Part shown: in pieces, positions 2,362 to 28,370 of the stretch
Layout: every line of letters begins with the position of its first letter
How positions within the stretch are numbered: the first letter of the stretch is position 1
Assembly: GCA_049290495.1 (NCBI GenBank)
Contig: JBATNV010000318.1
Coordinates: 4,709-68,708 of the forward strand
Direction: 5' to 3'
DNA length: 64,000 nucleotides
DNA from: Gammaproteobacteria bacterium
GTDB lineage: Bacteria; Pseudomonadota; Gammaproteobacteria; Steroidobacterales; GCA-2729495
Notes under the pieces: model-generated
Database searches by the model: none
Told to the model about the DNA's origin: nothing
The model's input: the letters and a program-made list of their open reading frames with translations, nothing else
Made by a program: the position numbers and the translations under genes

Positions 2362-2455
2362 AGTGATTTCGCATGGTGGCGCAGTGTAAGCGATACACCG
2401 GTGGCGCCCAACCACGGGGGTTGTGCAGGCGCCGGTCAACACCGACAGGCGAACA

Positions 2456-6581: not shown

Positions 6582-6634
6582 AACAGGCTGGACTGAGCAA
6601 GCCATGCCATGCGCACAGACCAGCCCGAGTGCAC

Positions 6635-8124: not shown

Positions 8125-8127
8125 GAC

Positions 8128-8640
8128 TCAGCTTCCCTTTGACGCCGCAGCGCCCAGCAGCGGCGCATCGCCAATCGAAATATCCGGAAACAGCTCTGCC
8201 CGTACCAGCTGTCGGCCCTCACCCACCTCGTAGAAGCGCAGCACGTCCATCACCTGCACCAGCGTGTCGTAAGGCACATCCGGCTCCAGCAGGACCGTCA
8301 CGTTCGACATGTCCGGATAGTTCGACTTCACGCGCTGCAGGTAGGTGGCCAGTCCGTCGAGATCATAGTTCCCCTCCGTACGCGGCAGACGAGTCAGCAG
8401 ACCCTGGCTGCGTTCGCCCACCTCCAGGCCGTCTGCACGCACCGTCACCTCAAGCTGAAAAACCGGCTCCTCGACCGCAGCAGAAGACGCTGCGGGCAGG
8501 TCCAGCTCGATGATGGCCAACCGCGAGAACACCGCCGTGATGAGCAGGAACGGCACCAGCACCACCATCAGGTTCATGAAGGCGGTGATATCCATCTCTG
8601 GCGTTTCGGCCTGCCGTCGCTTTCGCCTGTTACTGCGCAT
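8128..8640 (-). CDS. exbD: biopolymer transport protein ExbD/TolR family
   Basis: 170 aa; ..EMDITAFMNLMVVLVPFLLI.. Confidence 0.9.
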   Translation of the reverse strand: MRSNRRKRRQAETPEMDITAFMNLMVVLVPFLLITAVFSRLAIIELDLPAASSAAVEEPVFQLEVTVRADGLEVGERSQGLLTRLPRTEGNYDLDGLATYLQRVKSNYPDMSNVTVLLEPDVPYDTLVQVMDVLRFYEVGEGRQLVRAELFPDISIGDAPLLGAAASKGS

Positions 8641-8659
8641 GGTGAATCCTCAGTGGTGC

Positions 8660-9310
8660 TCAGGCGGCCGTCTGCTGACGTCGGCGTTCATCGACTGCGT
8701 TGAGAAACTTCACCGAGACCATTTCCAGGCTGTCGATGATCCGCGTGGTCTTGCTCTGCAGGACGGTATGCACGAAGAGCAGCGGAATGGCGACGATCAG
8801 ACCGAAGGCCGTGGTGTTCATCGCCACCGAGATGCTGGCAGAGAGCAGATCGGCTTTCTCGGCCGGATTTGCATTGGCAACAGCGGTAAAGGCCTGGATC
8901 AGCCCGATGATCGTGCCGAGCAGACCGAGCAGCGTGGCGATATTGGCAAAGGTTGCCAGGTAGTGCGTGCGGCTTTCCAGACGCGGCATCACCTCCATCA
9001 GGCTTTCTTCCATCGCCTTCTCGATGTCATCGCGCCGCGTGGTGGTGCGGCTGCGATCCAGGCCGTAGGTGAGGATCGAACCGATCGCGGCATTCGACTT
9101 CGAGGTCAGGCTGGCAGCCTCAGAAAATTTTCCCGCCTGGATGAACGGCGTGATCTTCTTCCACAGCGCCTGATTGCTCACCGACGTCTTTGACAGATAC
9201 ACATAGCGCTCGATCGCTACGGCCAGACCCACCGCGAACACCAGTGCAATCGGGTACATAAAGAACCCGCCGCTCTGCATAAAGTGGACTATCGATGTAT
9301 ACGTTTCCAT
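8660..9310 (-). CDS. exbB: MotA/TolQ/ExbB proton-channel protein
   Basis: 216 aa, three TM segments; ..LATFANIATLLGLLGTIIGLI.. and ..AMNTTAFGLIVAIPLL.. are typical ExbB/TolQ. Confidence 0.92.
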   Translation of the reverse strand: METYTSIVHFMQSGGFFMYPIALVFAVGLAVAIERYVYLSKTSVSNQALWKKITPFIQAGKFSEAASLTSKSNAAIGSILTYGLDRSRTTTRRDDIEKAMEESLMEVMPRLESRTHYLATFANIATLLGLLGTIIGLIQAFTAVANANPAEKADLLSASISVAMNTTAFGLIVAIPLLFVHTVLQSKTTRIIDSLEMVSVKFLNAVDERRRQQTAA

Positions 9311-9709: not shown

Positions 9710-10338
9710 GTCGCGCCCTCTGCTCTTGCAGTGGTCGGCATCGCCGAGACGCGGCGCCGCAGGTCGGCGATCCAGCGCTCGACATCGGCATTGCTGTCGT
9801 CTGCCGCGAGGCTGAGGTATTGCTGATAGTTGACCAGCGCAAGCTCAGGTCGCTGGATGTAGAGGTCATAAAGGACGGCAAGGTTGTAGTAAGCGAGCGC
9901 ATAACCCGCATCGAGCTCGACGGCCTTCAGATAGGCCCGCTCGGATTCACTGAACTGCCCCTGCTGCCGGTACAGCACACCGAGACCGTTCCACACCGGC
10001 GCACAGCTAGTGCACACCGCGGAGGCCTTTTCGAAATAGTCGCGCGCCGCGGCCTCGTCGCCCTGCCGCATGCGCAGCAGCGCAAGGTTCAACAGCGGAC
10101 CGGCCAGCTCCGGATGCGCAACACTGAGAGCCTGCAGCGCACGCTCTGCAGCAGCGTCATCGCCGGCTTGTACGGCGGACAGCGCTGCCGAGTAGTCCGC
10201 CATCACCGCTGGCGACGGGCCTGTGTCTGCAACAGTCGGTGCGTTTTTCGCCGCACGCTCGCCGCCCGCCAGACTGCAGCTCACGCAGAACAGGGCGGCG
10301 AGAACTGCAGCAGCTCTAGTCAATCGTTGTAATGACAT
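9706..10338 (-). CDS. TPR-repeat lipoprotein
   Basis: Lipobox ..LFCVSC; TPR-like repeats (..AYLKAVELDAGYALAYYNLAVLY..). Confidence 0.8.
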   Translation of the reverse strand: MSLQRLTRAAAVLAALFCVSCSLAGGERAAKNAPTVADTGPSPAVMADYSAALSAVQAGDDAAAERALQALSVAHPELAGPLLNLALLRMRQGDEAAARDYFEKASAVCTSCAPVWNGLGVLYRQQGQFSESERAYLKAVELDAGYALAYYNLAVLYDLYIQRPELALVNYQQYLSLAADDSNADVERWIADLRRRVSAMPTTARAEGAT

Positions 10339-13141: not shown

Positions 13142-15048
13142 GGTGCACTGCCTTTAGGCGCCACGGCGCGCACGGACGAGGCCGCACGGTCGTAAATCGT
13201 GGCCAGCGCAAAGCGGGCCTGCACGCGATAACTCAGCAGGCGATCGCGCTGCTCGCTGAGCGCATCGATGGCCATCGCCTGCAGGCGCTGCTCTTCAGTG
13301 CCGCGGTCACGCGCCAGGGCCGCCTGCATGTTATGGATGCGTGGCGTGAGTGCCGCGATATGTGCGGAGAATCGATCCAGCTCTGCTGGCGTATCGTGCC
13401 AGGCGGCCAGACCCGATGCATGCGCGGCCTGCGCCTTCATCAGCGCGGCATCGATCCGGGCGAGCTCACGCTGCTGCTGCCACAACCGGTATTGATAGTC
13501 GCGATCGAGATCCCAGCTCAGCACGCCCTTCAACAGGCGATAGCGCTCGCGGACATCGCTGGCCGCTGCGTCCGCCAACTGCGGACTGGCACCCAGTGCT
13601 TCGAGACGCTGCCAGCGATCGAGCTCTTCAGTAGTCGCAAGCCCGGCAATATCGCGTGACTCCGCAACCTGCTCCAGATGCGCCGCCAGCGCATCACGCC
13701 GCGCCTGCAGCGACTCGAGACTGGCCTCATCGAGACCGGCAGCAACGCGCTGCTCACGTTGCGCATAAGCCGTGCGACGCGTCTCCACCATCTGCTCAAA
13801 GGCGGAGAGCTTTGCCTGCCACTCATCGAGATTGACTGACAGCGCGGCAAGGTCACGCACATTGCGCAGGCCTTCCTGAAAGCCGTGCCGCGCAACCAGG
13901 TCGTACAGGTAACGCGTTTCAATGCTGTCAGGCACAGTATCGAGCTGCCAGTACCAGCGCCCGATCCGCGCATCATCGGCACTGAGCATCGCGGGGATCA
14001 ACTGGCCGGCGCGACTGCCGTCAATCGCAGCATCGAGTTTGCCGATCTCGGTATCGTAAGCATCCAGCGCAGCCTGGTAGCCGGCCGCCGCCTCGCTGTG
14101 TGCGTCGAGCCTGGCCCAGGCATAGGGAATCGCGAGCAGCGACTCCTGTACCGCACTGTCGAGCAGATCGCGGTCACGCAACTCCAGCCAGGGTGTCAGG
14201 GCAGCGCGGTAGTCCTGCGTCGCTGCATCCGCCCACCCGGCACCGAGCAGCGCCTTTGCGGAGAAGGGTCCGTTCAATCGCACCCGCGCAAGTACCGGAC
14301 GCGCTTCACCATCGCGGCCCTGCTGCAGATAGAGATAGCCGAGCGCGAGATTGGCCTTGTCACGCAGGTCGCGCAGTTCAGGCGTATCAGCCGTGCTTCG
14401 GCCCAGTTGATCGAGCTGGCGGATCGCATCCTCTGGCCGGTTGAGCCGCACCAGGGCAACGCCCAGGTTGTAGCGCGCGTAGGCCACCCAGCTTTCCGGG
14501 CCCTGCCAGCCATCGAGTACGGCAACCGCAGCGTCGAAACGACCGAGCGCGAGGTAAGCCTGTGCCTTGAGCATCGGCAGTTCAGCATCCAGGCTCTCGG
14601 GCAGCTTGCCGGAGACGCGGTCGAAGGCCTCCAGCGCCTCCGCATACAGGCTGCGCTGGTAGCGCACCTTGCCCAGGTAGAACCAGGCGCGGTTGCGCAC
14701 TTCAGGTTCAGATGAATCCTGCAACAGACGGCTGAAAATCTGCTCAGCGCGAATGTGCTGGCCATAATGCAGATACAGGCCACCGAGCAGCAGCTCGGAT
14801 TCAGCCTCGTGATTGGCGACACGACCCGCATCACGGTCAACCAGCAGATGTGTCAACGCATCAAAATGCTCGTCCTGGTAAAACTGGAACAGGACTTCGC
14901 CATAGTAAAGATCACGCACCACCGCGCCGCTCACCGGTTCAGCGGCAGCTGCTGAAGCGCTGCCAGCGAGGAACAGCAAGGCGATCAGGCCCCGCAGGCT
15001 GAATCGCCTGTGGCCTGGTGCCGGGATACTGTTGCGAGTCAGGAACAC
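13138..15048 (-). CDS. TPR plus coiled-coil protein (636 aa)
   Basis: Signal peptide (..LFLAGSASAAAA). N-terminal TPR half, C-terminal long Ala/Arg/Gln-rich helical half. Confidence 0.85.
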   Translation of the reverse strand: MFLTRNSIPAPGHRRFSLRGLIALLFLAGSASAAAAEPVSGAVVRDLYYGEVLFQFYQDEHFDALTHLLVDRDAGRVANHEAESELLLGGLYLHYGQHIRAEQIFSRLLQDSSEPEVRNRAWFYLGKVRYQRSLYAEALEAFDRVSGKLPESLDAELPMLKAQAYLALGRFDAAVAVLDGWQGPESWVAYARYNLGVALVRLNRPEDAIRQLDQLGRSTADTPELRDLRDKANLALGYLYLQQGRDGEARPVLARVRLNGPFSAKALLGAGWADAATQDYRAALTPWLELRDRDLLDSAVQESLLAIPYAWARLDAHSEAAAGYQAALDAYDTEIGKLDAAIDGSRAGQLIPAMLSADDARIGRWYWQLDTVPDSIETRYLYDLVARHGFQEGLRNVRDLAALSVNLDEWQAKLSAFEQMVETRRTAYAQREQRVAAGLDEASLESLQARRDALAAHLEQVAESRDIAGLATTEELDRWQRLEALGASPQLADAAASDVRERYRLLKGVLSWDLDRDYQYRLWQQQRELARIDAALMKAQAAHASGLAAWHDTPAELDRFSAHIAALTPRIHNMQAALARDRGTEEQRLQAMAIDALSEQRDRLLSYRVQARFALATIYDRAASSVRAVAPKGSAP

Positions 15049-15649: not shown

Positions 15650-16141
15650 TCATTCCGAAATCAGGGCAGACAGTTCATCGGTATAGGTCGTGGCGTCTTC
15701 AGCGCGGTATCCGGCATACACCTGGCGGACAGTGCCGTGCGGGTCGACGAGTACGGCAAAAGGAAGAACAGAAGGGTCGTACTCACGGACCACCGACTGA
15801 TCGGCGTCGTGCAGGATGGTGATACCCAGACGTTTTGCAGCATCCCGGGCAGGTTGATCATCTGTATCGATGTTCACGGCAAGGATGCGCAGATTCGCAT
15901 CGCCAAAACGGTGCTGCAGATCGCGGAGCATGGCCAACTGCTCACTGCAGCGGTTGCACCACTGCGCCCAGAAGCTGACAAGTACAACCTGGCCGCGATA
16001 CTCCGACAAACGCAAATTGGTGCCTGCGCTGCTCTTGAGTGCGAAATCGGGCGCCGGCTGACCGGCAAGCCCGGAGCTGGCCGGAACGGCGACGGGTAGG
16101 AGCAGCACAGCGAGTGCCAGGGAAATGCCACTCCGGCGCAT
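15650..16141 (-). CDS. TlpA/redoxin-family thiol:disulfide oxidoreductase
   Basis: ..VVLVSFWAQWCNRCSEQL.. thioredoxin motif after a signal/anchor (MRRSGISLALAVLLLPV). ORF-track start 16300 rejected because it lies inside the leader hairpin. Confidence 0.85.
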   Translation of the reverse strand: MRRSGISLALAVLLLPVAVPASSGLAGQPAPDFALKSSAGTNLRLSEYRGQVVLVSFWAQWCNRCSEQLAMLRDLQHRFGDANLRILAVNIDTDDQPARDAAKRLGITILHDADQSVVREYDPSVLPFAVLVDPHGTVRQVYAGYRAEDATTYTDELSALISE

Positions 16142-16287
16142 GAACGCGCGAAGCAGCACAGCGCCTGTACTGCGCCTCTGTCCGTGCTGCTGACCGATGA
16201 TCTTCAAAGCCTGTCTCCGCGGAACCAGCACAGCGCTGGTGCTCACACACAGACAAGGAAAACAGCTAGAAGATAGAGGGGACGCAT

Positions 16288-16311
16288 GACGCAGGCCCAC
16301 AGGCCTGCGTC
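16288..16311 (-). terminator. GC-rich hairpin directly after the riboswitch aptamer (possible expression platform)
   Basis: Perfect 10-bp stem GACGCAGGCC/GGCCTGCGTC with a 4-nt loop. Its 5' arm abuts the AAUCCUG segment that can pair back into the aptamer. The downstream tract is pyrimidine-rich but not a clean U-run. Confidence 0.4.
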
Positions 16312-16452
16312 AGGATTCGGCAGCTCCGCTGTCCTGGGTGCAGCTCGCAGCAAGCGAGGCGCCGTTAGACCGGTGGCTTTGCGTCCCCGCCTTTCAGCGG
16401 GTTTGCCTTTGTCGCCCGGAATGGTGACGATTTGACGGCAGGAATCCTGCGA
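16312..16452 (-). ncRNA. c-di-GMP-I (GEMM-I) riboswitch, candidate; boundaries approximate
   Basis: Reverse complement of 16362-16416 is GGCGACAAAGGCAAACCCGCUGAAAGGCGGGGACGCAAAGCCACCGGUCUAACGG. It matches the remembered GEMM-I core (GGCAAACC, GAAA-capped hairpin, GGGACGCAAAGCC, CCGGnCUAA) almost position for position. CAGGAUU (16443-16449) and AAUCCUG (16311-16317) can close the element. Confidence 0.7.
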
Positions 16453-16513: not shown

Positions 16514-17212
16514 TCAGGGTGTGCCGGCAAGGCGAAACATCCGGTAGTACTCGGTACTTTCAGTACCCCAGCGTACCGCACCGCTATCGTCGACGAACTG
16601 CCCCCAGAACTGGTATTCGTCAGGCCGGATAACCACGGCATCGCGCGCATAGAGCGTGGTTTTCAGCCCCTCGCTGTACAGCGTACAGGCCCGCTCCTGC
16701 ATGACGCCGGAAACCTCGGTGCCCTCGGCATTGGCGGTCAGCACAAAGTCACAGCCCGGCTTTACGTCGACGTCAGCCATCGTGAGCTGCTGCAACAGTT
16801 CCGGCTTCTGGTATGCATTCTTCCACCGCTCAGCGTCACGGAAATTAAGTTCGCGCTGCACCAGCTTGCCGGTCTGCGGGTCGATGAAATACTGCAGCAA
16901 TCCGATACGGATCAGCGACGGCGGACTGAAGCTGCCATCCACCGACGCGTGCTGATAAACCAGAAAGCCGTCGATACCAGGAATCCCCGCCGTCAGCGGC
17001 GCAAAGAACTGGTATAGCTGGCGGTGAATCTGTTCCGGCGGCAACTTCCGCGTCAGGTCGCTCTCAAACTGCGCCGTGTTGCTGTACCGGCCATGTACCC
17101 AGGCGCGCACCAGGCTGAGCGTCCCCGCAGCAGCATCCGGTTTGGGTGCCGCACTGAGAGGTGCGATGGCACCAAGCAACAAAGCCAGGCAAAGAATAGT
17201 GCAGTTGCGCAT
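16514..17212 (-). CDS. CpcT/CpeT-like (bilin-lyase fold) protein with signal peptide
   Basis: ..WVHGRYSNTAQF.., ..KPGCDFVL.., ..CTLYSEG..WG.. follow the CpcT/CpeT (DUF1001) pattern. N-terminal signal peptide MRNCTILCLALLLGAIAPLSA. Confidence 0.7.
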   Translation of the reverse strand: MRNCTILCLALLLGAIAPLSAAPKPDAAAGTLSLVRAWVHGRYSNTAQFESDLTRKLPPEQIHRQLYQFFAPLTAGIPGIDGFLVYQHASVDGSFSPPSLIRIGLLQYFIDPQTGKLVQRELNFRDAERWKNAYQKPELLQQLTMADVDVKPGCDFVLTANAEGTEVSGVMQERACTLYSEGLKTTLYARDAVVIRPDEYQFWGQFVDDSGAVRWGTESTEYYRMFRLAGTP

Positions 17213-17292: not shown

Positions 17293-18036
17293 ATGCACAC
17301 AGGTCTCAGTCGAATTCTGAAAACACTCGCACTTCTGCTGCTGTCCGCCGCCAGCAGCCAGGCTGGCAACAGTCCGGCCGCCAGCGAGAGCAAGGTGCTG
17401 GTTTTCGGCGGCACCGGGCAGCTGGGTTCTGCGATCGTCCGCGAGCTGCTGACCGCCGGCTACCCGGTTGTAGTATTCGTACGTCCTTCCTCCGATCGCA
17501 GTCGCCTGGCCGGACTGAAAGTCAGCTATGTCACCGGCGACATCCTCAATGCCGGCCAGGTCATGGCCGCCTTTGACGGCAAGGACATTCGTACTGTGGT
17601 CGATGCGACAGCGCGCGGCAGCGCCGACGATGAGTTCTACCCGACTGCAATGACGCACATCATCGCCGGTGCAAAAGCTGGCGGCGTACAACAGATCATC
17701 CTGGAGGGCTCGGTCGGTGCCGGGGATAACGTCAACCAGTTTCCGCAGGCTAATTTTGGCCGGATGCGTTCGACGCTGGCTGCCAAGGGACGTGCGGAGC
17801 AGCTGCTGATCGACAGCGGCATCGGCTACACGATCATTCGTAACGGCATCCTGCTTTCGGCCGATCTGCCGCCAACGCGTGCCGCCCGTCTCAGTACGGA
17901 CCAGAGCCTGATGAGAAAGATCACGCGTACTGACCTGGGACTATTGACCGTACTGTGTATAGGCAACCCAGCCTATATGAATGGTGTCTGGCATGCTGTC
18001 GATGACAGCCAGGACGTGCCACCGCAATATCGCTAG
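17293..18036 (+). CDS. NAD(P)-binding (NmrA/atypical SDR-like) protein with N-terminal signal sequence
   Basis: VLVFGGTGQLGSAIVRELL Rossmann motif after ..LLLLSAASSQA. Confidence 0.8.
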   Translation: MHTGLSRILKTLALLLLSAASSQAGNSPAASESKVLVFGGTGQLGSAIVRELLTAGYPVVVFVRPSSDRSRLAGLKVSYVTGDILNAGQVMAAFDGKDIRTVVDATARGSADDEFYPTAMTHIIAGAKAGGVQQIILEGSVGAGDNVNQFPQANFGRMRSTLAAKGRAEQLLIDSGIGYTIIRNGILLSADLPPTRAARLSTDQSLMRKITRTDLGLLTVLCIGNPAYMNGVWHAVDDSQDVPPQYR

Positions 18037-18044
18037 ATAAAAGT

Positions 18045-18063
18045 GTTATGAATGTTTCATAAC
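18045..18063. terminator. AT-rich hairpin between convergent genes
   Basis: GTTATGAA-tgt-TTCATAAC inside a conspicuously AT-rich 50-bp gap (18037-18081). Confidence 0.35.
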
Positions 18064-18081: not shown

Positions 18082-19863
18082 TTAATTACTGACTGCCTGG
18101 CCGACATTTGCAACTGTCACATGCTCTGCGAGGCGCTCTGCGCAGTTCTCGACCAGCTTCCGTAGCGGCGCCGGGAACCCGGTCCCTGCACTGACCAGCG
18201 CCAGGCTGCAGCGGTCGAGTGGAAAGCCCTGCGCCTCGATCTCGGCCGGCGTTACGCCAATCAGCAGCGCATCACAGTTCGAATCCAGCAACAGGCCGCG
18301 CACCCGATCCGCGAGCACAGCGGATGGCGCAAAGCGCGCCTGCCCGGCGAGCAGGGTCTGTCGGCTGTCGGTCACGCCCAGGCATGCGCTGTTCGCTCGC
18401 AATGCATCGCCTGTCGCCCTGAGAAGATCTTCGTCTCCACCGATGAGCACGACCGTGCGGATGCGACCATCGCAGCCATCCGGAAACCTCGCTTCCAGGA
18501 TCTGCACCGCACGTTCATCGGAAGAAAATCCGGGCGTGGCGTTGATCTCTATGACTGCACAATCGGTTTCGCGCCAGGAACGGCCGATGTCGGGGGTCAT
18601 GAAATCGATACCGGCCGCATCCAGATGAAAACAGCGCGCCAGCGATTCAGCCATGTCACGGTTGTCCGGATGTACCGCGGCTGTGCAATCCACCAGCGTC
18701 CCGCCGCGGGAAACATTTGCAGTGCTGCGCAAGCTGATCACACGGCCGGCCGCGGGCCGGTCGTCAGGACCTGAACCCTGCTTCAACAGCAGCGCCAGCA
18801 TGTCAGCATCCAGTGTCAGCTGCACACTGGCGCCCTCGGGCACGCTTTGCCGGCGCCGCTGGTTCTCCACATCGATCAGCTCAGAAACCGAACGGTTGCC
18901 ATCACCGACGATCCGCGGTGGTGACAGGCACGAGGCCCATATCAGCTTCCCGCCGATCACCGTCAGACGATGATCGTCGCCCGACACATGCCGCTCGATC
19001 AGCAGACTGCCCGGTGCAACCCGGTTGGCGGTCTCGAAAGCAGTCACCAGCTCCTGATCAGTGGTGATGTGCGCGCTGACGCCCTCGCCTTGCCGGCCGG
19101 CGTTAGGCTTGATGACCACCGGAAAGCCGATTTCCTGTGTACGTATCCGCGCCTCCGCGAGGGTACTGATCGGCGCAGCGCCGGCATCCGGAAAACCCAG
19201 CTGCGCGATTAGCTGACTGGCCAGCAACTTGTTGCGCGCCAGATTGAGCCCGGTCAGCGAATCCTGATGACTGGCGGCTACGAAACCGTGGAGGCCGGCC
19301 CGCCCCTGGCCATAGAGCCAGATGCGCGACCCAGGCGATACCGGGTAGACCGGGATACCGCGCGCCCGTGCGACACGCATCAGTGCCTGGGTCGTCTGGT
19401 CCGGCTGGCGCAACAGCAACACTGAAGCGAGTGTCTGCATCCGCGCCTCGATCGGCTGCAGATCGACACGACGCCCACCCGCTTCGTTGAAAAATGCAGT
19501 CGCGAGTTCCAGCCCAATCTCAAGCGCCATGGTGGTCGCCTGGATATCGTAATAGCCGAGCAGGATCCGGCAGTCGCCGCCGTTCAGACGCTGGATCTGC
19601 AGATCAAGACCGAGTCGGCCGTGCAGGTTCTGCAGTGCGCTCGCCAGTGCCGCCGCGAGCTGCCCGAAACTCACCTTCCCTGGTGGCAGCACCACATGGC
19701 GCATCAGCGCCGGCGGAATAAAGCTGGCGAGCTTTGCGGCCAGCGGCGCGGCCGGCACCATAACTTCGGCAGGCTCCGGAAATTCAGCAGCTACGGCAGC
19801 GAATGGCGCGGCGAGGTTTGGACCATGAAATACCGTGTACTTGACCGGCAATACCTCTGTCAT
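18082..19863 (-). CDS. cyanophycin-synthetase-like ATP-grasp protein without a Mur-ligase domain
   Basis: 593 aa. CphA-like N-terminal region, ATP-grasp core (..GFPVVIKPNAGRQGEGV.., ..HRLTVIGGKL.., ..AVIEINATPG..), then about 120 aa of unknown C-terminus. ATGA overlap with the upstream gene. Confidence 0.8.
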   Translation of the reverse strand: MTEVLPVKYTVFHGPNLAAPFAAVAAEFPEPAEVMVPAAPLAAKLASFIPPALMRHVVLPPGKVSFGQLAAALASALQNLHGRLGLDLQIQRLNGGDCRILLGYYDIQATTMALEIGLELATAFFNEAGGRRVDLQPIEARMQTLASVLLLRQPDQTTQALMRVARARGIPVYPVSPGSRIWLYGQGRAGLHGFVAASHQDSLTGLNLARNKLLASQLIAQLGFPDAGAAPISTLAEARIRTQEIGFPVVIKPNAGRQGEGVSAHITTDQELVTAFETANRVAPGSLLIERHVSGDDHRLTVIGGKLIWASCLSPPRIVGDGNRSVSELIDVENQRRRQSVPEGASVQLTLDADMLALLLKQGSGPDDRPAAGRVISLRSTANVSRGGTLVDCTAAVHPDNRDMAESLARCFHLDAAGIDFMTPDIGRSWRETDCAVIEINATPGFSSDERAVQILEARFPDGCDGRIRTVVLIGGDEDLLRATGDALRANSACLGVTDSRQTLLAGQARFAPSAVLADRVRGLLLDSNCDALLIGVTPAEIEAQGFPLDRCSLALVSAGTGFPAPLRKLVENCAERLAEHVTVANVGQAVSN

Positions 19864-21233
19864 GCGGCCGCCCGCTGCAGGCGGAGACCCAGCATTGCGC
19901 GTACCTGTGCACAGGTCGCCAGCGGCCGTTCAAACTCCTGACTGATCCGCACCAGGCGCTGCACCAGTTCGACATTGGTGGCCAGGCGGCTGCGCCCGGC
20001 GTCATAGTGGATGTTGTCCTCGAGACCGACACGCACATTTCCGCCGGCAAGAATCGCCGCAACGTTCATCGGCAACTGGAAAGAACCGAGACCCGCAGCA
20101 GACCAGACTGAATCCTCAGGCAGTGCAGCGACCAGGTGCGATAGATCACCGATCGTCGCCGCCGCGGTATTGAGATTGCCGAGCAGCAGGTTGAAATACT
20201 TCGTGCCGCTGAGTATGCCGTGCCGCTCGAGATACTTGGCCAGATTGATCATGCCGGTATCGAAGATCTCAAGCTCAGGCTTGATGTCGTTTTCGCGCAT
20301 GCACATCGCCAGCCGCTCGATGGTGTGGATGGCATTGCTGCTCGGCCCGGTGAGGAAATTGAGCGAACCGAGCGTCAGGCTTGCCATGTCCGGCTGTGCC
20401 GCTCCCTTGAGCAGCAGGACTTCACTACGCCGCTCGAACTCAGGCCAGTTGCGACCGCTGGTGGTCACACAACAGATGAGTTCCGGGCGCTCGCGGCGGA
20501 TGCCGGTGAGGATACGCTCAAAGTACCGGGTGTCGGAGGTGGGCTGGCCGGTCGTCTCGTCACGCGCGTGCAGATGAACCATCTGCGCGCCGGCATCGGC
20601 AACTGCAATCGCATCGCGGATGATCTCGTCTACGCTCAGTGGCACATAGGGCGTGCTGGCGCGGGTCGGGATCATGCCGGTCGGACAGACATTGATGATC
20701 AGCGGCGGCCAGGGTGACAAGGGATGCGGCGAATAGCGCTGCAGGTAACTTTCGCGGCGCGCCTCCCAGCCGTCCCGCTCGCGCATGTAGCGCCGCAGAT
20801 CCATGCGGATCGTGGTCCAGTAATCCACATTCTCGAGACCGAAGGAATGGATCTTCTTCAGCCGGCCGATTTCCAGATACCCGAAGTGCTTCTTGTACCA
20901 GGCAATGGTGTCGGGAATGTCCGCGTTGGTCAGTACCGTCTGAGCACCCAGAGCGTACATCGCCTCGAGGCGGGCAACCTGCAGTGCCTTGCCAATACCG
21001 AGGCCTGAAAGCTCCGGATTGACGCCGAGCAGCGTCGTCTTGCCCTCGGTCGGCGACAGCATCGTGTAGCCACCCGCGCCGACAATCTTCCCGTCGAGTC
21101 TCGCGACAAAGAAATTATCGAGCTCCAGCGTCGGCATTTCTGCCGAAGGCACCTGGTGCATGTTGAAAAAACGCATGACTTCCAGGATGGCTGGAAGGTC
21201 AGCGGGACGGGCCTTTTCGATGGTGTACTGCAT
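19860..21233 (-). CDS. GNAT acetyltransferase fused to a BKACE (3-keto-5-aminohexanoate cleavage enzyme, DUF849) domain
   Basis: N-terminus ..GVNPELSGLGIGKAL.. (GNAT). From about residue 170: ..INVCPTGMIPT..PLSVDEII..AGAQMVHLHARDETTGQPTSD.. (BKACE TIM barrel). Confidence 0.8.
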   Translation of the reverse strand: MQYTIEKARPADLPAILEVMRFFNMHQVPSAEMPTLELDNFFVARLDGKIVGAGGYTMLSPTEGKTTLLGVNPELSGLGIGKALQVARLEAMYALGAQTVLTNADIPDTIAWYKKHFGYLEIGRLKKIHSFGLENVDYWTTIRMDLRRYMRERDGWEARRESYLQRYSPHPLSPWPPLIINVCPTGMIPTRASTPYVPLSVDEIIRDAIAVADAGAQMVHLHARDETTGQPTSDTRYFERILTGIRRERPELICCVTTSGRNWPEFERRSEVLLLKGAAQPDMASLTLGSLNFLTGPSSNAIHTIERLAMCMRENDIKPELEIFDTGMINLAKYLERHGILSGTKYFNLLLGNLNTAAATIGDLSHLVAALPEDSVWSAAGLGSFQLPMNVAAILAGGNVRVGLEDNIHYDAGRSRLATNVELVQRLVRISQEFERPLATCAQVRAMLGLRLQRAAA

Positions 21234-21297
21234 GCCGGGATTCTTGCAGACTCCACCGGTTAAACACCAGCCTGCCGCTTACCGGCCCGTCTGGAAC

Positions 21298-22311
21298 TCA
21301 GTCGGCAGCCAGCGCCTTGGAGAACCGCACTTTGCGACCGGCATCGATGATCACGGCCGCGTAACCAGGGGTCGCTTCGATCAGGGCCAGGCCGCGTTCA
21401 GGTCCGAGCACGAACACACTCGTTGAAAGGCCGTCGGTGAGTGTCGCGTCAGGACCGATGATGGTCACACTGCGGACGCCCGCCACCGGCTTGCCACTCT
21501 TTGGATCGAGGATATGGTGATAGCGCACGCCGTCTTCGTCAAAGAAGCGCTCGTAGTCGCCGGAGGTTGAGATCGCCTCGTCATCGAGTGCCAGGCGCGT
21601 CACCCACTTTGACTCGTCATCCGGATCACGAATGCCAACTACCCAGGGCTTGCCGCGCCGGTCACCCAGGAGACGCGTATCGCCGCCCGCATTGACTAGC
21701 GCATTGGTGACGCCGGCCTTGCGCAGTAACGCCACCACCTGCTCGCAGGACCAGCCCTTGGCGATGCCACCCAGGTTGATCCGCGTACCCGGCCGCGTGA
21801 AGCGTATGGTCGACTTGCCGGCATCGAGCAGGACGTGACGGTAGTTGATGGCATCGAGATTGTTCGCAATTTTCGCTTCGCTAGGCCGCTCATGAGCACG
21901 GAAGTCATAGAGGTAGCCCACGCTGTCGTAGGTGATGTCGAAGGCCCCACCGGTCTGCACAGACAGTGCCAGCGAACGGCGCACCAGCGCGAAGAGTTCG
22001 GCCGACACAACCACCGGCACAGTAGCGGCATCCCGGTTAACCACGGAGATCTCGGAACTCGCACGGTAGGTGCTCATCTCGACTTCGATGCGATCGAACT
22101 CGGCCATGCCGGCGGCGATCAGCTGCCTGGCCTGCGACTCATCATCCATCCAGAGCTGGATTTCGACGCGCGTACCCATCTTGTCCTGCTGCTCTCCGAA
22201 CCAGGCAGCACTGGCGGACAGCGGGAGAAAGACAGCAAGCAGGCTGGCGACCCAGCGAATGCGGAGCGCGTCAGAACCAGAGTGAAACGAAGAACTGCAG
22301 CACGTTGGCAT
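21298..22311 (-). CDS. apbE: FAD:protein FMN transferase ApbE
   Basis: ..MGTRVEIQLW.., ..GGAFDIT.., ..NLGGIAKGW.., ..AISTSGDYERFF..HILDPKSG.. Start uncertain; the ATG at 22311 gives a signal peptide and overlaps the upstream gene. Confidence 0.88.
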   Translation of the reverse strand: MPTCCSSSFHSGSDALRIRWVASLLAVFLPLSASAAWFGEQQDKMGTRVEIQLWMDDESQARQLIAAGMAEFDRIEVEMSTYRASSEISVVNRDAATVPVVVSAELFALVRRSLALSVQTGGAFDITYDSVGYLYDFRAHERPSEAKIANNLDAINYRHVLLDAGKSTIRFTRPGTRINLGGIAKGWSCEQVVALLRKAGVTNALVNAGGDTRLLGDRRGKPWVVGIRDPDDESKWVTRLALDDEAISTSGDYERFFDEDGVRYHHILDPKSGKPVAGVRSVTIIGPDATLTDGLSTSVFVLGPERGLALIEATPGYAAVIIDAGRKVRFSKALAAD

Positions 22312-23395
22312 CGAATTCATAAAGGGGCTCCGCACCAACGGCGCCACCGCCGTTAACATCGCGGAAATCATCATAGCTGTAGGTGTAGTGATCGAGAACC
22401 AGATTCACCGTACTGCGCAGGGGGCGGTCACCTGCCCTGTCGAGCCAGGTATAGCTCACCGCGACATGCGGGCCGTAGCTCTGGAACTTGCTCAGCTCCT
22501 TGTCACGGCCCATGTAGTTCTGCGCGTCGGCATAAGGGAACAGGTCGGAATAGAAGTCCGCAGCGTTCTGACTGTAGTAGCGATAGCGAACATCCACCAT
22601 CCACCGGTCACGCCAGGGCTGCACATAACCGATGTCAAACGTCTGCGCGTCTACACCCCAGTCATCAGTGAAGAAGCGGTATCCGCCCGAAACTGCTGCC
22701 CGATATGGCAAGTGATAGCGGATGCTGATTGCAGCGGCATTGCTGGCGCGGGTATCTGGATAAACCTCGCCCTGCCAGCCATATCCGGCGGCCTGGCCTG
22801 CATCCACATACCGCACCTGGCGATAGGGATTGTTCAGATAGCCCTCATCGGCGATCGCCTCATAGTTGAAGCTTGCCAACAGGTTCCTGGTCAGAATCTG
22901 CGTGATGCCCAGGCGGTAGGCATGCCGCTTGATCTGGCCAGAGAATGCTGAATCGCCGCGCTTGCTGACATCATCGGAGCCACTGCCATAACCGAGGGTA
23001 ATGGTGGTCAGGCCGTTGAAGATGTCCTGGCTGATGCCGAAATTCACGGTCTCTGCGTTGTAGTCGTTCTCATCGCTGCTACTGAAGCCAAAGCTCAGCG
23101 TGGTGTCCTCATGCAGGTAATCGGCGCCGACACCCCACTGTTTGCGCTCTTCAGAGTATTTGCTGGCCGTGGTGATGACGTCAATCGACGCACTGCTGAT
23201 GCTGTCCACGTAATAGCTGGCGGAGAGTGAAACTTTCTCGTTGACCGACTTGCGTACCAGCAATGACGGCCCGTCAATCTGCACGCCGCCGCCATCGTAA
23301 TAATGATAGAGGGCATCGGCACGCTCCTCGGGCAGCACACCGGCAATCGCCGCACTCACAGACAGGATCAGCAGTGTGCCGGTGCGCCACATCAT
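22271..23395 (-). CDS. DUF3570-like outer-membrane beta-barrel protein
   Basis: 374 aa, signal peptide, alternating Tyr/Gly-rich beta-strand pattern, C-terminal ..FFVSLWF. Confidence 0.8.
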   Translation of the reverse strand: MMWRTGTLLILSVSAAIAGVLPEERADALYHYYDGGGVQIDGPSLLVRKSVNEKVSLSASYYVDSISSASIDVITTASKYSEERKQWGVGADYLHEDTTLSFGFSSSDENDYNAETVNFGISQDIFNGLTTITLGYGSGSDDVSKRGDSAFSGQIKRHAYRLGITQILTRNLLASFNYEAIADEGYLNNPYRQVRYVDAGQAAGYGWQGEVYPDTRASNAAAISIRYHLPYRAAVSGGYRFFTDDWGVDAQTFDIGYVQPWRDRWMVDVRYRYYSQNAADFYSDLFPYADAQNYMGRDKELSKFQSYGPHVAVSYTWLDRAGDRPLRSTVNLVLDHYTYSYDDFRDVNGGGAVGAEPLYEFDANVLQFFVSLWF

Positions 23396-23620
23396 CTAGT
23401 TACACCCGCAGCCGCCGCCGGCACTGCCGGTGGCGCCACGCGATGCCTCGCGCGCTTCATGGACGTGATCGAGATAGGTACTGGAGACAGGATTGCGGTC
23501 AAAACTCATGATCGGGTCGGCCAGCCGGTCGCGCTCATAGGGCTTTACCCACGGCTCGACATTGCTGCACCCGGCCAGCAGCATGACGGCACCGAGGAAT
23601 ACAGCCAGCGCCGCTTTCAT
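23396..23620 (-). CDS. DUF4266-like small lipoprotein
   Basis: 74 aa; lipobox LLAGC; C-terminus ..EAREASRGATGSAGGGCGCN. Directly abuts the DUF3570 gene. Confidence 0.8.
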   Translation of the reverse strand: MKAALAVFLGAVMLLAGCSNVEPWVKPYERDRLADPIMSFDRNPVSSTYLDHVHEAREASRGATGSAGGGCGCN

Positions 23621-24132
23621 GTGCGCTCCCGTATCAGCTGGCGGATGACGTCCTGGTAAACGCTTTCGTCACCCGCCTGGTAACCCTGGTGGATGAAGCG
23701 GATATTGCCCTTGCGATCGACGATCACCGTACTCGGCATCGCGGCCACATCGTAGAGCTTGCTGACCCGGTTGGCCGGATCCAGGAGCACCGGGAAGGTC
23801 ACCGGCACATCGCCAAGAAAGGCTTCCATCTGCGTGGTGTCCTCTTCGACATTGACACCGAGCATGGTGAAGCCGAGCGGTGCATACTTTTTCTGGATCT
23901 GCTCGAGCAATGGCATTTCCTTGCGGCACGGACCGCACCAGGTCGCCCAGAAATTGATCAGCACAACCTGCCCACGCAACGAAGTGAGGGATACGGCCTG
24001 GCCGTTGCGGGATGGCAGACTGAAGTCAGCTGCTGGACCTGTTGCCTCACCCGCCGCGACCGGCAAGGACATCAGCAGACCCGACAGGCACGCAACCCGC
24101 ACAAACCGGAGCAGTTTTCTGCGCATATTCAC
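23617..24132 (-). CDS. TlpA-family thiol:disulfide oxidoreductase
   Basis: ..VVLINFWATWCGPCRKEMP.. after a signal peptide. Confidence 0.9.
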   Translation of the reverse strand: MNMRRKLLRFVRVACLSGLLMSLPVAAGEATGPAADFSLPSRNGQAVSLTSLRGQVVLINFWATWCGPCRKEMPLLEQIQKKYAPLGFTMLGVNVEEDTTQMEAFLGDVPVTFPVLLDPANRVSKLYDVAAMPSTVIVDRKGNIRFIHQGYQAGDESVYQDVIRQLIRERT

Positions 24133-25538: not shown

Positions 25539-28178
25539 CTAGTTCAGGGGCGCCTGAAACGGATCGTTGTAGTACTGCGCACCGATATCCACCCACTCGG
25601 AAATCAGGCGCAGTTCTGCCGGCGACAGGCGGCCTGCGTGCGTACCCCCGGCTGCAAAGCGGCTGAAAAAGCGCGTCGAGTTACGCGCTCCGGCAGTCGA
25701 CAGCGACGCACTGACCGATACAGGACTGAAGACCGGATCGCCGGTTACCGGATCGACGCCGGTCTGCACCAGGCGGTCGGCAAGCGCGCCTTCGACGAGT
25801 TCCTGCTCATTATCCGTGGAGAGCAACTCGCGGTAGGCCTTGAAATGATCGCCGTTGATATCAGAGGCACCGTCTGACAGATCGAGCTGGCCGGCCGGCA
25901 GCTGCACGGTACCCAGCACGCTGACAGGCGCATGGCAGCTCGTACAGGTGTCATCGCTGAGTACCGTAACGCCGTCACCGGCCAGCGTCTGGCGGGGTTT
26001 GCTCCACAGCGGGTGTATGTGTGCCTCGTAGTTGATCGTGATCCGGCAGTGCGGCGCCCAGCTGTCGAGGCAGTCAGCGCTGGTCGGTATCGGCGTGCTG
26101 AGATCTGTATAACGCCAGGCAAAGCTCGAATCTGCAGGCCGGCCAGCCGCAACGGGATCGGTCCAGATATCGTCGTAGACGACATCCTCGTCCAGAGCGA
26201 TCAGCTGACAGTCGGTTGCGCAGCTGATGCGCTTCTTGACCTGCGCCATGGTCTCGCCGAAATCCGCAAAGAACGCAGTGTTGGTGTTCGGGAACGGCTG
26301 ACCGTCAGCCGTAGCACCGCTCCATGCGCTCGTGAAAGCAGCCTGCCGCCCGTGCGACACCTGGTTCTGTGTCGAGTGGCAGCCGTTGCAGGCCAGCACC
26401 TCACCGGGACGCAGCTGCAGCCAGTTCTGATGGCGCGCAGTGATGCGTCGCCCGTCTGCATCCAGTACCGACAGCGCGATCGGCACGTTGGCAGGCACCC
26501 GCACCACGACCGAACCATCCGGCTCGACTGGCGCATAACCGAGAATCTCGCGCATGCCCTGCCCCGCGCTGACACCAAACGCGCTGTTGTCGAAGTCACG
26601 CACATCCCGGTCTGGCAAGGCCACAGCTTTTTCGATGCGCAGAAAGCGCGCCTGACGCTGGGCGGCTGTGGTCTGCGCCGGATCGGCCACTGCGCTGATG
26701 TTTAGCGAAGCCCTGCCATCAAAGTCATAGACACTGCGGATATCGATCAGGCCCTGCTCATTCATCACGAGTTCCGGATCGAGCTGACCGGTCGAGGCCT
26801 GGTCAAAGATTACCGGCGGCAGCGTTCGCGGCTGTGCCGCCACGAGGTCGCTGACCAGTACATTCTCGGTAGGCGAGAACACCGGCAACTGCGTTCCGGC
26901 CACCGGATCGAAGATCCACACGCCATAGAGCGGAAAAGCCGGCCGCGCGTCGGGCGCTGCCAGTGCTGCCGCCGTGCAAGGCACGATCTTGTCATCGACG
27001 TCCAGCAAGCGGCAGGGGCTCCAGACCGTGAACATCCGGCCGGTACCATCCCAGAGCGGGAACGCAGCGCCGAATGTGCCACCGGGTGAGATGCCATCAT
27101 CGGTGCGCACATCATTGACCACAGTGCGAACCTGCGCCGGTCCGACCAGACCGGCATTGGCGGCGGTCGGCTGCAGGTTTTCTACAAAGTGCTCGGCATC
27201 GATGCTGACCAGGTCGCCACCACCGTCATCCACCTCAAAGGGCCGGATCACGCTAAGGATGCGTCCGTCCGGCAGCTCGCGTGGTTGCGAGAACTGGATG
27301 GTTGCACCATCGGTACCGGTATCGTGACTGCGCGAGCCGTAGTAGAGCTCAAGACCCGTTCCATCCGGGTTCATCCGGTAAAGGTTCATCTCGCTGTTGC
27401 CGGCCGCGTTGTCCCAGCGACTGAACAGAATCTGTCCGTTGGCCAGCACCGAGGCATCAAGGTCGTGGCTCTGGTTGAAAGAAATCTGGTGTATGTCGCT
27501 GCCATCGGCATTCATGACATGCAGCACAAATGCCGGCTCATTGCGGTCCTCATCCTGCGCATCGAACTGTTGCTTGCCTTCGTCGATCAGCACGGCCTTT
27601 GATTGCCGCTGCCGGGTCGAAGAAAAGACGATGCGGCCATCCGGCAGATACGCCGGCGCGATGTCCTGCCCGGTTTCGGCATTCAGATCGGAGCTGATCA
27701 CCCGGCGCAAGGTGTCACCCGCGAAGTTGTACTCCCAGATGTTCCAGGTGGGCTGGTCTTCTTCGTCGGCACCGGCCACGAATGGACCGCGCATCGCGAA
27801 AATGAGCGTGGCACCGTCCCAGGACACTTCCGGATCGCGGATATCGTAGAGACCGCTGGCCTGCGTTATGCGTTCAGTAATGTTGCGCTCAACGGCGGTA
27901 ACTGCCGCGCGCTCGCGCACATAGAGATCGGCGCCGATATCGAAGCGGCGCAGTTCGCGCAGATCAGAAGCCTGCAATGCGCCCTGCGCATCAACCGGCA
28001 GCGGCCGCTTGACGTACGCGATCGGCACATCGACCACGACCGGATCCGGGTTCTGCTCGCCACCGACGCCACCGCCGCCGCAGGCAGAGAGCCCGAAGGC
28101 GACTGCAGTCCACAGCAATAGACTGCAGACGGAAATTCTCCGCCCGCGTAATTGAATATTTCGCGTCACTAAAACCAT
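25539..28178 (-). CDS. beta-propeller (TolB/PD40-like) dihaem c-type cytochrome lipoprotein, hydrazine-synthase-alpha-like architecture
   Basis: Lipobox ..AFGLSAC. PD40-like repeats (..DGRIVFSS.., ..NGQILFSRW.., ..MNPDGTG..). Two CXXCH motifs in the C-terminal third (LACNGCHS, CTSCHAP). Start 28178 or 28184. Confidence 0.8.
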   Translation of the reverse strand: MVLVTRNIQLRGRRISVCSLLLWTAVAFGLSACGGGGVGGEQNPDPVVVDVPIAYVKRPLPVDAQGALQASDLRELRRFDIGADLYVRERAAVTAVERNITERITQASGLYDIRDPEVSWDGATLIFAMRGPFVAGADEEDQPTWNIWEYNFAGDTLRRVISSDLNAETGQDIAPAYLPDGRIVFSSTRQRQSKAVLIDEGKQQFDAQDEDRNEPAFVLHVMNADGSDIHQISFNQSHDLDASVLANGQILFSRWDNAAGNSEMNLYRMNPDGTGLELYYGSRSHDTGTDGATIQFSQPRELPDGRILSVIRPFEVDDGGGDLVSIDAEHFVENLQPTAANAGLVGPAQVRTVVNDVRTDDGISPGGTFGAAFPLWDGTGRMFTVWSPCRLLDVDDKIVPCTAAALAAPDARPAFPLYGVWIFDPVAGTQLPVFSPTENVLVSDLVAAQPRTLPPVIFDQASTGQLDPELVMNEQGLIDIRSVYDFDGRASLNISAVADPAQTTAAQRQARFLRIEKAVALPDRDVRDFDNSAFGVSAGQGMREILGYAPVEPDGSVVVRVPANVPIALSVLDADGRRITARHQNWLQLRPGEVLACNGCHSTQNQVSHGRQAAFTSAWSGATADGQPFPNTNTAFFADFGETMAQVKKRISCATDCQLIALDEDVVYDDIWTDPVAAGRPADSSFAWRYTDLSTPIPTSADCLDSWAPHCRITINYEAHIHPLWSKPRQTLAGDGVTVLSDDTCTSCHAPVSVLGTVQLPAGQLDLSDGASDINGDHFKAYRELLSTDNEQELVEGALADRLVQTGVDPVTGDPVFSPVSVSASLSTAGARNSTRFFSRFAAGGTHAGRLSPAELRLISEWVDIGAQYYNDPFQAPLN

Positions 28179-28370
28179 CACCATCCCTGTCACAGCCTGC
28201 CCAAGACTGTGTGTGCATCTGACCTGATGCGCGGCGCCCAATCGCCTGCCAGCTAACCTAATGCATAGCGATTTGAACGAACTGTTAAGGCGGTCACAGA
28301 ACCCCGGGCCGCTGATAACGATAAATGCTCAACGGCGTGCAATGCGCCGCGTTACCGGGATGGGCACAAG

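Follow-up and report, generated by a model that had tools for sequence, protein, structure and literature searches.

A GNAT-BKACE fusion gene overlapping a gene for a truncated cyanophycin-synthetase-like ligase: a candidate module for N-acylated amino acids or short peptides

CphA2, a relative of the cyanophycin synthetase CphA1, combines an active G domain with an N domain and with an M domain that is truncated and inactive (PMC10273328). In Ngg of the N-acetylglutaminylglutamine amide (NAGGN) osmolyte pathway, a GNAT acts together with a CphA/RimK-type ATP-grasp ligase. The BKACE (DUF849) family includes Kce of lysine fermentation. In canonical members, a Tyr residue (Tyr145 in Kce) contacts the CoA sulfur, while BsfD of flavophos biosynthesis has Phe at this position and lacks the canonical retro-Claisen release of acyl-CoA (bioRxiv 10.64898/2026.01.15.699783). 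In Obc1 (Obc1/ObcA of oxalate biosynthesis), the CoA adduct of a BKACE-like barrel is processed by a second catalytic domain, to which the barrel is fused. Here we describe two overlapping genes in a 64,000-nucleotide stretch (called the window) of contig JBATNV010000318.1, from a sulfur-bacterium-like genome; one of them encodes a fusion of a GNAT to a BKACE domain and the other a CphA2-like ligase. Based on sequence comparisons and structure models, the pair may form one module, coupled in translation, for the synthesis of an N-acylated amino acid or short peptide, an assignment which we favor while giving it somewhat less than an even chance. All three enzyme folds are known; uncharacterized are their combination and the conserved coupling to interchangeable ligases. 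Full-text literature searches found no publication on a BKACE with a GNAT, on DUF849 with an ATP-grasp, or on such an architecture, in line with the original prediction made from the DNA alone, which knew of no characterized pathway with this domain combination.

The original prediction had proposed a GNAT-BKACE fusion gene carrying the motifs INVCPTGMIPT and MVHLHARDETTGQPTSD, whose stop codon overlaps by ATGA with the start codon of a 593-aa open reading frame (ORF). Coordinates and frame proved exact, both motifs were found in the 457-aa translation, and the overlap is present (Table 1). Pfam analysis revealed Acetyltransf_1 (PF00583; aa 37-119; 30.1 bits, cutoff 20.7) and BKACE (PF05853; aa 177-450; 279.1 bits, cutoff 24.8; E = 5e-83) in the fusion, and cyanophycin-synthetase and ATP-grasp models matched the 593-aa protein. 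The fusion is widespread. In a large protein collection, more than 100 clusters of 449-472 aa contained both domains at 60-99% identity, and among the names of their sources are Chromatiales, Gammaproteobacteria, Sulfurovum, Hydrogenimonas, Chlorobium, Sumerlaeota, and Spirochaetota. It is conserved at approximately 60% identity between Chlorobiota, Campylobacterota, Gammaproteobacteria, Bacteroidota, and Planctomycetota, and it is frequent in sulfidic and sediment metagenomes. This high conservation and this frequency suggest one defined, probably important small-molecule reaction. Public records label the protein either "GNAT family N-acetyltransferase" or "3-keto-5-aminohexanoate cleavage enzyme."

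When 20 diverse orthologues from different phyla (61-93% identity) were aligned, the alignment was unbroken over the domain junction and contained approximately 140 invariant columns spread over both domains. Furthermore, GNAT and BKACE were found as adjacent separate genes in one lineage represented by five independent contigs (loci L121, L131, L134, L162, and L164) and in locus L155, with the frame change at approximately aa 150-160, inside the linker. Fusions in the reversed order, BKACE-GNAT, with lengths of 448-458 aa, were present on several independent contigs (P0386, P0424), and thus the two domains were joined at least twice. The end-to-end alignment of the orthologues through the junction, together with the split and the reversed forms, rules out that the fusion arose as an artefact of a frameshift or of assembly.

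The nearest public relative, the Chromatiales metagenome-assembled genome GCA_024234935.1, is 94% identical and has the same gene order. Loci L086, L087, and L174 also retained the order ApbE, fusion, ligase, NAD(P)-binding protein, and CpeT-like protein, and in all three the 4-nt overlap between fusion and ligase genes was kept, down to 67% ligase identity. The proposed translational coupling is therefore supported in the window and in its relatives, and neither an artefactual fusion nor an unconserved pair, the two ways in which the original prediction might have failed, was observed. The survey of co-occurrence gave a mixed outcome: this very combination of fusion and ligase does not extend beyond the Chromatiales clade to which the window belongs, while a ligase-type neighbor of the fusion recurs across lineages as described below. 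Those members of the window's ligase family (approximately 600 aa) whose identity is no higher than 49% adjoin a Methyltransf_11 gene (L091, L175) or other genes (L092, L093), which argues against a general occurrence of this specific pair.

We then compared the two domains of the fusion with solved relatives. The acyl-CoA pyrophosphate-binding loop of the GNAT domain is present as S76-G77-L78-G79-I80-G81 (family pattern Q/R-x-x-G-x-G/A), and profile score and loop both agree with GNAT family membership. In orthologue alignments, G77, G79, G81, and N103 were invariant, and Y113 was nearly so. The closest solved structures are YpeA, ArgA, Ard1-type enzymes, and phosphinothricin acetyltransferase (PAT), all of which acetylate alpha-amino groups on amino acids or peptides. 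The subfamily is small and distinct, with 186 clusters at E ≤ 0.001 among 1.84 billion representatives. An AlphaFold model of the fusion (mean pLDDT 83.5) showed two compact domains with a long helix between them, and Foldseek aligned the barrel with Kce at a TM-score of 0.92 and an rmsd of 2.1 Å; Obc1 was also among the fold matches. Mapping on Kce (PDB 2Y7D) identified the Zn ligands H220, H222, and E405 and the catalytic residues E322, R401, and D406 (Glu143, Arg226, and Asp231 of Kce), all six of them invariant in the 20 orthologues. T257 and S285 stand at the positions of Kce Ser82 and Thr106, respectively. Score, fold, Zn ligands, and catalytic residues thus place the domain in PF05853, and TIM barrel, Zn ligands, and catalytic Glu/Arg/Asp are kept as in Kce and further BKACE/DUF849 structures (PDB 2Y7D-G, 3FA5, 3NO5, 3CHV). 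Judged by their residues, both the GNAT and the BKACE domain are predicted to be catalytically intact.

The BKACE domain is, however, not a Kce. Its score of 244.5 bits is below the equivalog cutoff of 382 (NF052387), Glu14, which binds the substrate amino group in Kce, is replaced by I188, and the protein bears the extra N-terminal GNAT domain. Moreover, the Tyr at the CoA sulfur (Kce Tyr145) is replaced by F324, which is invariant in the family. As this Phe is shared with BsfD, a non-canonical BKACE chemistry is possible. BsfD and Obc1/ObcA are otherwise sequence-distant from the window protein (ObcA, E = 3e-4) and have other partners and substrates, and no phosphonate or oxalate context was found at the window locus.

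The best sequence matches of the 593-aa ligase were CphA1 proteins (PDB 7LGM, 7LGN, 7WAE; E = 5e-55). Profile-profile alignment with hhalign placed residues 1-558 on positions 1-576 of the 912 positions of CphA1 (probability 100%), so that the alignment spans the N and G domains and enters the M domain. The scores against the CphA1 models TIGR02068 and PRK14016, however, were 239-253 bits versus cutoffs of 850-877; the PRK14016 match (253 bits, cutoff 877) aligned aa 92-557 with model positions 101-571 of 871. Unlike in CphA1, approximately 300 M-domain residues and the P-loop are absent: about 100-140 residues of the M-domain core are left, and GGDEDL stands where CphA1 has GTNGKT. Having lost the bulk of the M domain and the P-loop, the ligase should be unable to attach Arg in the CphA1 manner. 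The original prediction of a truncated CphA with N and ATP-grasp parts is correct in this respect, but its statement that a Mur-ligase domain is missing is not, since hhalign detected the dead stub. The ATP-grasp signature (K252, E290, D297-H298-R299, and E439/N441) was conserved in an alignment of 31 homologues.

The ligase resembles CphA2 (PDB 7TA5, 8FXH/8FXI; approximately 630 aa) in its layout, with an active G domain between the N domain and a truncated, inactive M domain, and the ATP-grasp Arg is kept (R308 of StCphA2, R299 in the ligase). Foldseek aligned the structure model (mean pLDDT 84.6) over approximately 600-650 columns with CphA1 (E = 2e-40) and, over approximately 600 columns, with CphA2 (E = 4e-39). 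Nevertheless, the identity to CphA1 and CphA2 is only 21-26% (approximately 24-26% for CphA2). D212 of StCphA2, which contacts the Arg side chain of cyanophycin, corresponds to N207 and is often K or R in the family; T202 corresponds to A197, and T163 to T157, which is not conserved in the family. In further contrast to CphA2, the window host is non-cyanobacterial, the ligase is coupled translationally to a GNAT-BKACE protein, and genes of cyanophycin metabolism were not seen nearby; no cyanophycinase or isoaspartyl dipeptidase is among the annotated genes of the window. With Ngg (TIGR03103), the ligase shares the ATP-grasp part, which matched the Ngg model at aa 196-450 with 136.9 bits (cutoff 569). 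Unlike in Ngg, the window GNAT is fused to a BKACE on another protein, and the ligase possesses the N domain of CphA together with an M stub. Of the annotated neighbors of the pair, none is an AsnO-type amidotransferase. Genuine CphA1, CphA2, and Ngg were ruled out as identities of the ligase by the family cutoffs, the M-domain loss, and the cyanophycin-binding residue.

We next asked which genes accompany the fusion in other lineages. A scan of a genome collection with a full-length alignment returned mostly plain BKACE genes, with fusions in 6 of 80 loci, because the search patterns lay in the BKACE domain. It was repeated on metagenomes with an alignment of the GNAT domain alone, and this worked: of the 91 loci gathered, 80 came from the GNAT-seeded metagenome scan. 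A plasmid collection contained no GNAT-BKACE fusion, solely stand-alone BKACE genes. ORFs were called in the loci, and all neighbor proteins were clustered without prior labels. The three largest neighbor clusters turned out to be ATP-dependent carboxylate-activating enzymes: RimK-like ATP-grasps (approximately 330 aa) directly upstream of the fusion, mostly with a 4-nt overlap; CphA-like ATP-grasps (600-710 aa); and CapK/PaaK-like adenylating enzymes (approximately 450 aa). Other neighbors were a TupA-like ATP-grasp, an AMP-binding enzyme, a GCS2/YbdK ligase, and a PGA_cap protein. The 4-nt overlap between GNAT-BKACE and RimK-like ligase genes was present in eight further loci.

A carboxylate-amine ligase was encoded at most two genes from the fusion in 16 of 28 lineages (dereplicated at 85% identity, with at least 1.5 kb on both flanks). 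Within the same loci, 42 out of 238 genes at most two positions from the core belonged to ligase families, compared to 3 out of 339 farther off (odds ratio 24; Fisher p = 3e-14, a value that is optimistic because the loci were not dereplicated in that test). The partner ligase is located upstream, downstream, or convergently and belongs to at least five unrelated families. In a neighbor-joining tree of the G domain, the CphA-like neighbors split into two clades. Clade B is the ligase family of the window. Clade A (approximately 650-710 aa) is closer to CphA1 and adjoins the fusion in green sulfur bacteria and further lineages; it is located upstream of the fusion in L098 and L099, convergently in L004 (Chlorobium), and downstream in L100, L101, L106, and L177 (CP110622.1 of the cultured Prosthecochloris sp. 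SCSIO W1103). According to this tree, a CphA-like ligase was recruited beside the fusion twice independently. In L145, three clade-A paralogues occur with a GNAT-only paralogue, which has a 4-nt overlap with one of them, and with a frameshifted fusion.

Truncated CphA-like ligases lacking a GNAT-BKACE neighbor overlap a gene for an S-adenosylmethionine (SAM) methyltransferase (L091, 8001-10558; L175, 3567-8576; L176). As in clade B, the clade-A member of L176 (Porphyrobacter, 6250-8857) overlaps a Methyltransf_11 gene, so that GNAT-BKACE and a SAM methyltransferase are alternative partners of truncated CphA-like ligases. The next gene in L091 and L175 encodes a bactofilin, and in L175 a gene for an MscS-type mechanosensitive channel is located 10 nt upstream.

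The GNAT domain likewise changes its company. GNAT-only genes were found beside CphA-like ligases (L115, L138) and beside a CapK-like gene (L120). L115 (3395-5620) is syntenic with L100 (8001-11508), sharing the upstream genes and the downstream CphA-like ligase; in L115 the GNAT part alone (162 aa) is present, the BKACE part is missing, and approximately 230 bp separate it from the ligase gene. Homologues of the window GNAT (40-53% identity) are fused to other enzymes, among them, as in Ngg, ATP-grasp ligases (Table 1). The adjacency of two CphA-like clades and of RimK-, TupA-, and CapK-like ligases, together with these direct fusions, supports the idea of the original prediction that the GNAT works with a CphA/RimK-type ligase. 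In summary, the GNAT appears to be the hub, with the BKACE on one side and an interchangeable carboxylate-amine ligase on the other.

Table 1. Features of the gene pair and its flanks in the window and proteins in which homologues of the window GNAT are fused to other enzymes
Feature	Position or protein	Strand	Basis or remark
Gene for the 457-aa bifunctional GNAT-BKACE protein	19860..21233	(-)	ORF, translation, Pfam and NCBIfam matches, orthologues, structure model
GNAT domain, approximately aa 1-150	20784..21233	(-)	Pfam matches; loop S76-G77-L78-G79-I80-G81; N103 and Y113 conserved
Inter-domain linker, part of it a long helix (aa 146-167 in the model)	20706..20783	(-)	Secondary structure of the model
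BKACE (DUF849) TIM-barrel domain, aa 177-450	19884..20705	(-)	PF05853; residues mapped onto Kce 2Y7D
ATGA stop/start overlap	19860..19863	(-)	Sequence; TGA of the fusion ORF over ATG of the ligase ORF
Gene for the 593-aa CphA2-type ATP-grasp ligase (N, G, dead M stub)	18082..19863	(-)	ORF, NCBIfam, structure and profile matches
CphA-type N domain, approximately aa 1-155	19399..19863	(-)	hhalign to CphA1 from residue 1; Foldseek
ATP-grasp G domain, approximately aa 156-450	18514..19398	(-)	Invariant columns; CphA1/CphA2 alignments
Mur-ligase-type M-domain remnant, approximately aa 451-593	18085..18513	(-)	hhalign to CphA1 position 576/912; P-loop lost
64-bp spacer between the ApbE gene and the fusion gene	21234..21297	(-)	No consensus promoter or terminator
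Weak AU-rich hairpin followed by CUUUUAU, just past the ligase stop, between convergent genes	18045..18063	(-)	Sequence
GNAT fused to TupA-like ATP-grasp	P0364		
GNAT fused to RimK-like ATP-grasps	P0397, P0401, P0493		
GNAT fused to CapK-like enzyme	P0371		
GNAT fused to the unannotated protein that precedes the fusion in L090	P0406		
GNAT fused to ketopantoate-reductase-like domain	P0421		495 aa, six assemblies

How the two proteins might cooperate can be outlined as follows. The BKACE domain would convert acetyl-CoA and a beta-keto acid to acetoacetate and a shortened acyl-CoA, or catalyze a non-canonical variant of this reaction. GNAT and BKACE, both CoA dependent, would share one thioester, and the GNAT would transfer the BKACE-derived acyl group, or simply acetyl, to the amino group of an amino-acid-like acceptor. 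The ligase would then phosphorylate the free carboxylate of the N-blocked product and add one or more amino acids, by analogy with Ngg, which makes N-acetyl-Gln-Gln, and with CphA G domains, which extend the C-terminus. The BKACE was assigned the role of acyl-donor supplier because such enzymes use and make CoA thioesters, and because CoA- or adenylate-forming enzymes replace it beside the GNAT elsewhere: there, CapK/PaaK-type and AMP-binding enzymes, which produce acyl-adenylates or CoA esters, are neighbors or fusion partners of the GNAT. N-capping is favored because truncated CphA-like ligases lacking GNAT-BKACE overlap a SAM methyltransferase gene, and because the GNAT fold is nearest to alpha-amino acetyltransferases. 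No exporter or glycan genes are adjacent to the pair in the window genome, which makes a small molecule or oligomer in the cytoplasm the likeliest product.

Several observations weigh against this module. In 12 of the 28 well-flanked lineages, no ligase adjoins the fusion, and in one lineage all neighbors are housekeeping genes. Most members of the window's ligase family are not located beside GNAT-BKACE. The ligase-GNAT fusions each come from a single contig and are individually weak evidence, whereas the reductase-GNAT and the reversed BKACE-GNAT fusions are each found on several contigs. Since GNAT-only genes occur beside a ligase in L115 and L138, the BKACE may be accessory. Furthermore, if the domain with its F324 behaves like BsfD, the acyl-CoA supply is weakened. 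Because of F324 and of the loci lacking the BKACE part, donor supply by the BKACE is the least secure step of the explanation. A bolder version of the module is unlikely in our judgment: a self-feeding N-acyltransferase, in which the BKACE would provide an unusual acyl-CoA from a beta-keto acid and acetyl-CoA at no expense of ATP, the GNAT would transfer the acyl group to an amino acid, and polymerization or extension by a CphA2-like ligase would yield a new oligo- or poly-amino acid with an N-cap, which sulfur-oxidizing and green sulfur bacteria would use as a reserve polymer or stress solute. If it is true that the BKACE feeds its own GNAT, this would be a new route to amides from beta-keto acids and a biosynthetic role for BKACE chemistry. 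In addition, the truncated CphA-like ligases form two large, non-cyanobacterial, uncharacterized clades of approximately 600-700 aa, whose products would extend cyanophycin-type enzymology. Prosthecochloris sp. SCSIO W1103 is a cultured, fully sequenced carrier of a GNAT-BKACE/ligase pair, which makes the question directly testable.

Among the other explanations, the ligase could be a true CphA2-like polymerase of a cyanophycin-like or other poly-amino-acid storage or envelope polymer, for which GNAT-BKACE makes a monomer or primer or caps the N-terminus. We consider this doubtful, with perhaps one chance among several. It would account for the N, G, and dead M architecture with its fold match to CphA2 over approximately 600 columns, for the three paralogous ligases of L145, and for the company found elsewhere, namely partner ligases whose families take their names from activity on poly-amino acids (RimK-like, TupA-like), besides a capsule protein of the PGA_cap/CapA type. 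It agrees poorly with the low identity to CphA1 and CphA2, with N207 (often K or R in the family) at the position of StCphA2 D212, and with the fact that a cyanophycinase or isoaspartyl dipeptidase was not seen in the annotated parts of the window. Moreover, ATP-grasp enzymes with such a G domain also make simple dipeptides, as in Ngg and GshAB.

A catabolic role of GNAT-BKACE was also considered, in which an amino group is acetylated and the derived beta-keto acid is later cleaved with acetyl-CoA, the ligase having a separate or salvage role. In the classical beta-lysine route of Pseudomonas, N6-acetyl-beta-lysine is converted via 3-keto-6-acetamidohexanoate to 4-acetamidobutyryl-CoA and acetoacetate. 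In line with such a route, among the NCBIfam models, that of Kce from lysine fermentation matches the BKACE domain best (244 bits), the hydrophobic I188 in place of Kce Glu14 would suit an N-acetylated, uncharged side chain, and in many lineages the fusion has no conserved partner. However, no aminotransferase, aminomutase, or deacetylase adjoins the fusion in any locus examined, and the ligase enrichment, the overlaps, and the fusions would be left without explanation, so that this role seems improbable. The ten more distant window genes that were annotated include no aminotransferase, aminomutase, cyanophycinase, or amidotransferase.

Rather improbable, too, is the possibility that the target of the module is a polymer of the cell surface (glycan or capsule), which would receive an acyl-aminoacyl group, and that the window contains a reduced form of such a system. 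No glycosyltransferase, flippase, or exporter is located near the pair in the window and its relatives, where the actual neighbors are ApbE, DUF3570, redoxins, the NAD(P)-binding protein, and the CpeT-like protein. Surface-related genes were nevertheless found at other loci: glycosyltransferases at L159 and L017, sugar epimerases at L116, a polysaccharide pyruvyl transferase at L152, PGA_cap at L148 and L151, a TupA-like ATP-grasp at L133, and a CapK_C protein with a sulfotransferase at L088. Finally, although neither family is invariably paired with the other and the flanking genes are unrelated to either, an adjacency without functional meaning in the window genome, with the two proteins serving unrelated processes, is very unlikely given the ATGA overlap conserved over the clade, the independent adjacency with a second CphA-like clade in three gene orders, and the enrichment of ligase genes beside the core versus distant genes of the same loci.

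Upstream of the pair, the window encodes ApbE (21298-22374), a DUF3570 protein (22271-23395), a ResA-like redoxin (23617-24132), and outer-membrane barrel proteins; downstream, a convergent gene for an NAD(P)-binding protein (17293-18036) and a gene for a CpeT-like protein follow. As pathway partners, the ApbE, DUF3570, redoxin, outer-membrane, NAD(P)-binding, and CpeT-like proteins were rejected, being unrelated to the pair. Scans for promoter and terminator consensus sequences detected nothing above the expectation from shuffled sequences. Because the gap after the ApbE gene has no consensus signals, cotranscription of the pair with ApbE is possible. The hairpin downstream of the ligase gene, with a fold energy of -6.5 to -7.1 kcal/mol and a z-score of -2.0, was not called by the consensus terminator scan and is a possible candidate terminator.

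The redoxin, DUF3570, and ApbE (FAD:protein FMN transferase) genes form a block on the minus strand directly upstream of the pair (21298-24132). The corresponding block of L086 (4757-8811) also contains a DUF4266 gene, and in L086 and L087 a trehalose-6-phosphate synthase/phosphatase fusion gene and a glucoamylase-like gene, both absent from the window, are inserted between DUF3570 and ApbE. An osmolyte as product has only circumstantial hints, the trehalose genes upstream in L086 and the MscS channel at L175, and these were not counted as evidence. Of the products suggested in the original prediction, neither a compatible solute nor a beta-amino-acid dipeptide found support, and the N-acetyl group that it proposed could instead be another acyl group.

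Further arrangements of the domains were seen at a distance from the window type. In soil metagenomes, stand-alone GNAT homologues with approximately 60% identity to the window GNAT (L156, 454-2329; L158, 629-2239) adjoin a ketopantoate-reductase-like gene and a gene for a pyridoxal phosphate (PLP)-dependent decarboxylase of the Orn/DAP/Arg type. L159 (466-15358) contains a divergent version in which GNAT, a CapK-like fragment, BKACE (44% identity), and a CapK-like protein are encoded by separate genes; it is preceded by three glycosyltransferase genes and followed by NMT1-like, pterin-binding, and B12-binding radical-SAM genes. In L001 (1643-7997; Sulfurovum), genes for a GCS2/YbdK carboxylate-amine ligase and an alanine-racemase-family protein, as well as agmatine-deiminase-family (PAD_porph) and CN_hydrolase genes, are located upstream of the RimK-like ligase and the fusion. 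These neighbors hint at a link to polyamine or D-amino-acid metabolism in the Sulfurovum lineage. Signs of such a polyamine link came from the vicinity of the Sulfurovum locus, with its agmatine deiminase and N-carbamoylputrescine amidase-like genes, from three loci with an amine oxidase downstream, and from an Orn/DAP decarboxylase beside GNAT-only genes, but they were too sparse for its adoption.

Elsewhere in the window, a match to the c-di-GMP-I-GGC riboswitch variant (Rfam RF03167) was found on the minus strand at 16315-16416 with 71.3 bits (gathering threshold 59; E = 7e-15), just upstream of an ORF for an AhpC/TSA-type redoxin (15650-16300, minus strand). This ORF is followed by a 192-aa ORF and by genes for two large TPR proteins (13138-15048 and 10316-13141). 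The CpeT/CpcT-family protein, whose family includes phycobilin lyases, is encoded at 16514-17212, and a protein with a region similar to red chlorophyll catabolite reductase at 1507-2622 (both on the minus strand), although the genome seems to be of the Chromatiales type. Moreover, a 900-aa protein encoded at 25539-28241 (minus strand) combines a hydrazine-synthase-alpha middle domain (PF18582, E = 9e-17) with a PD40 beta-propeller repeat and is conserved in L086.

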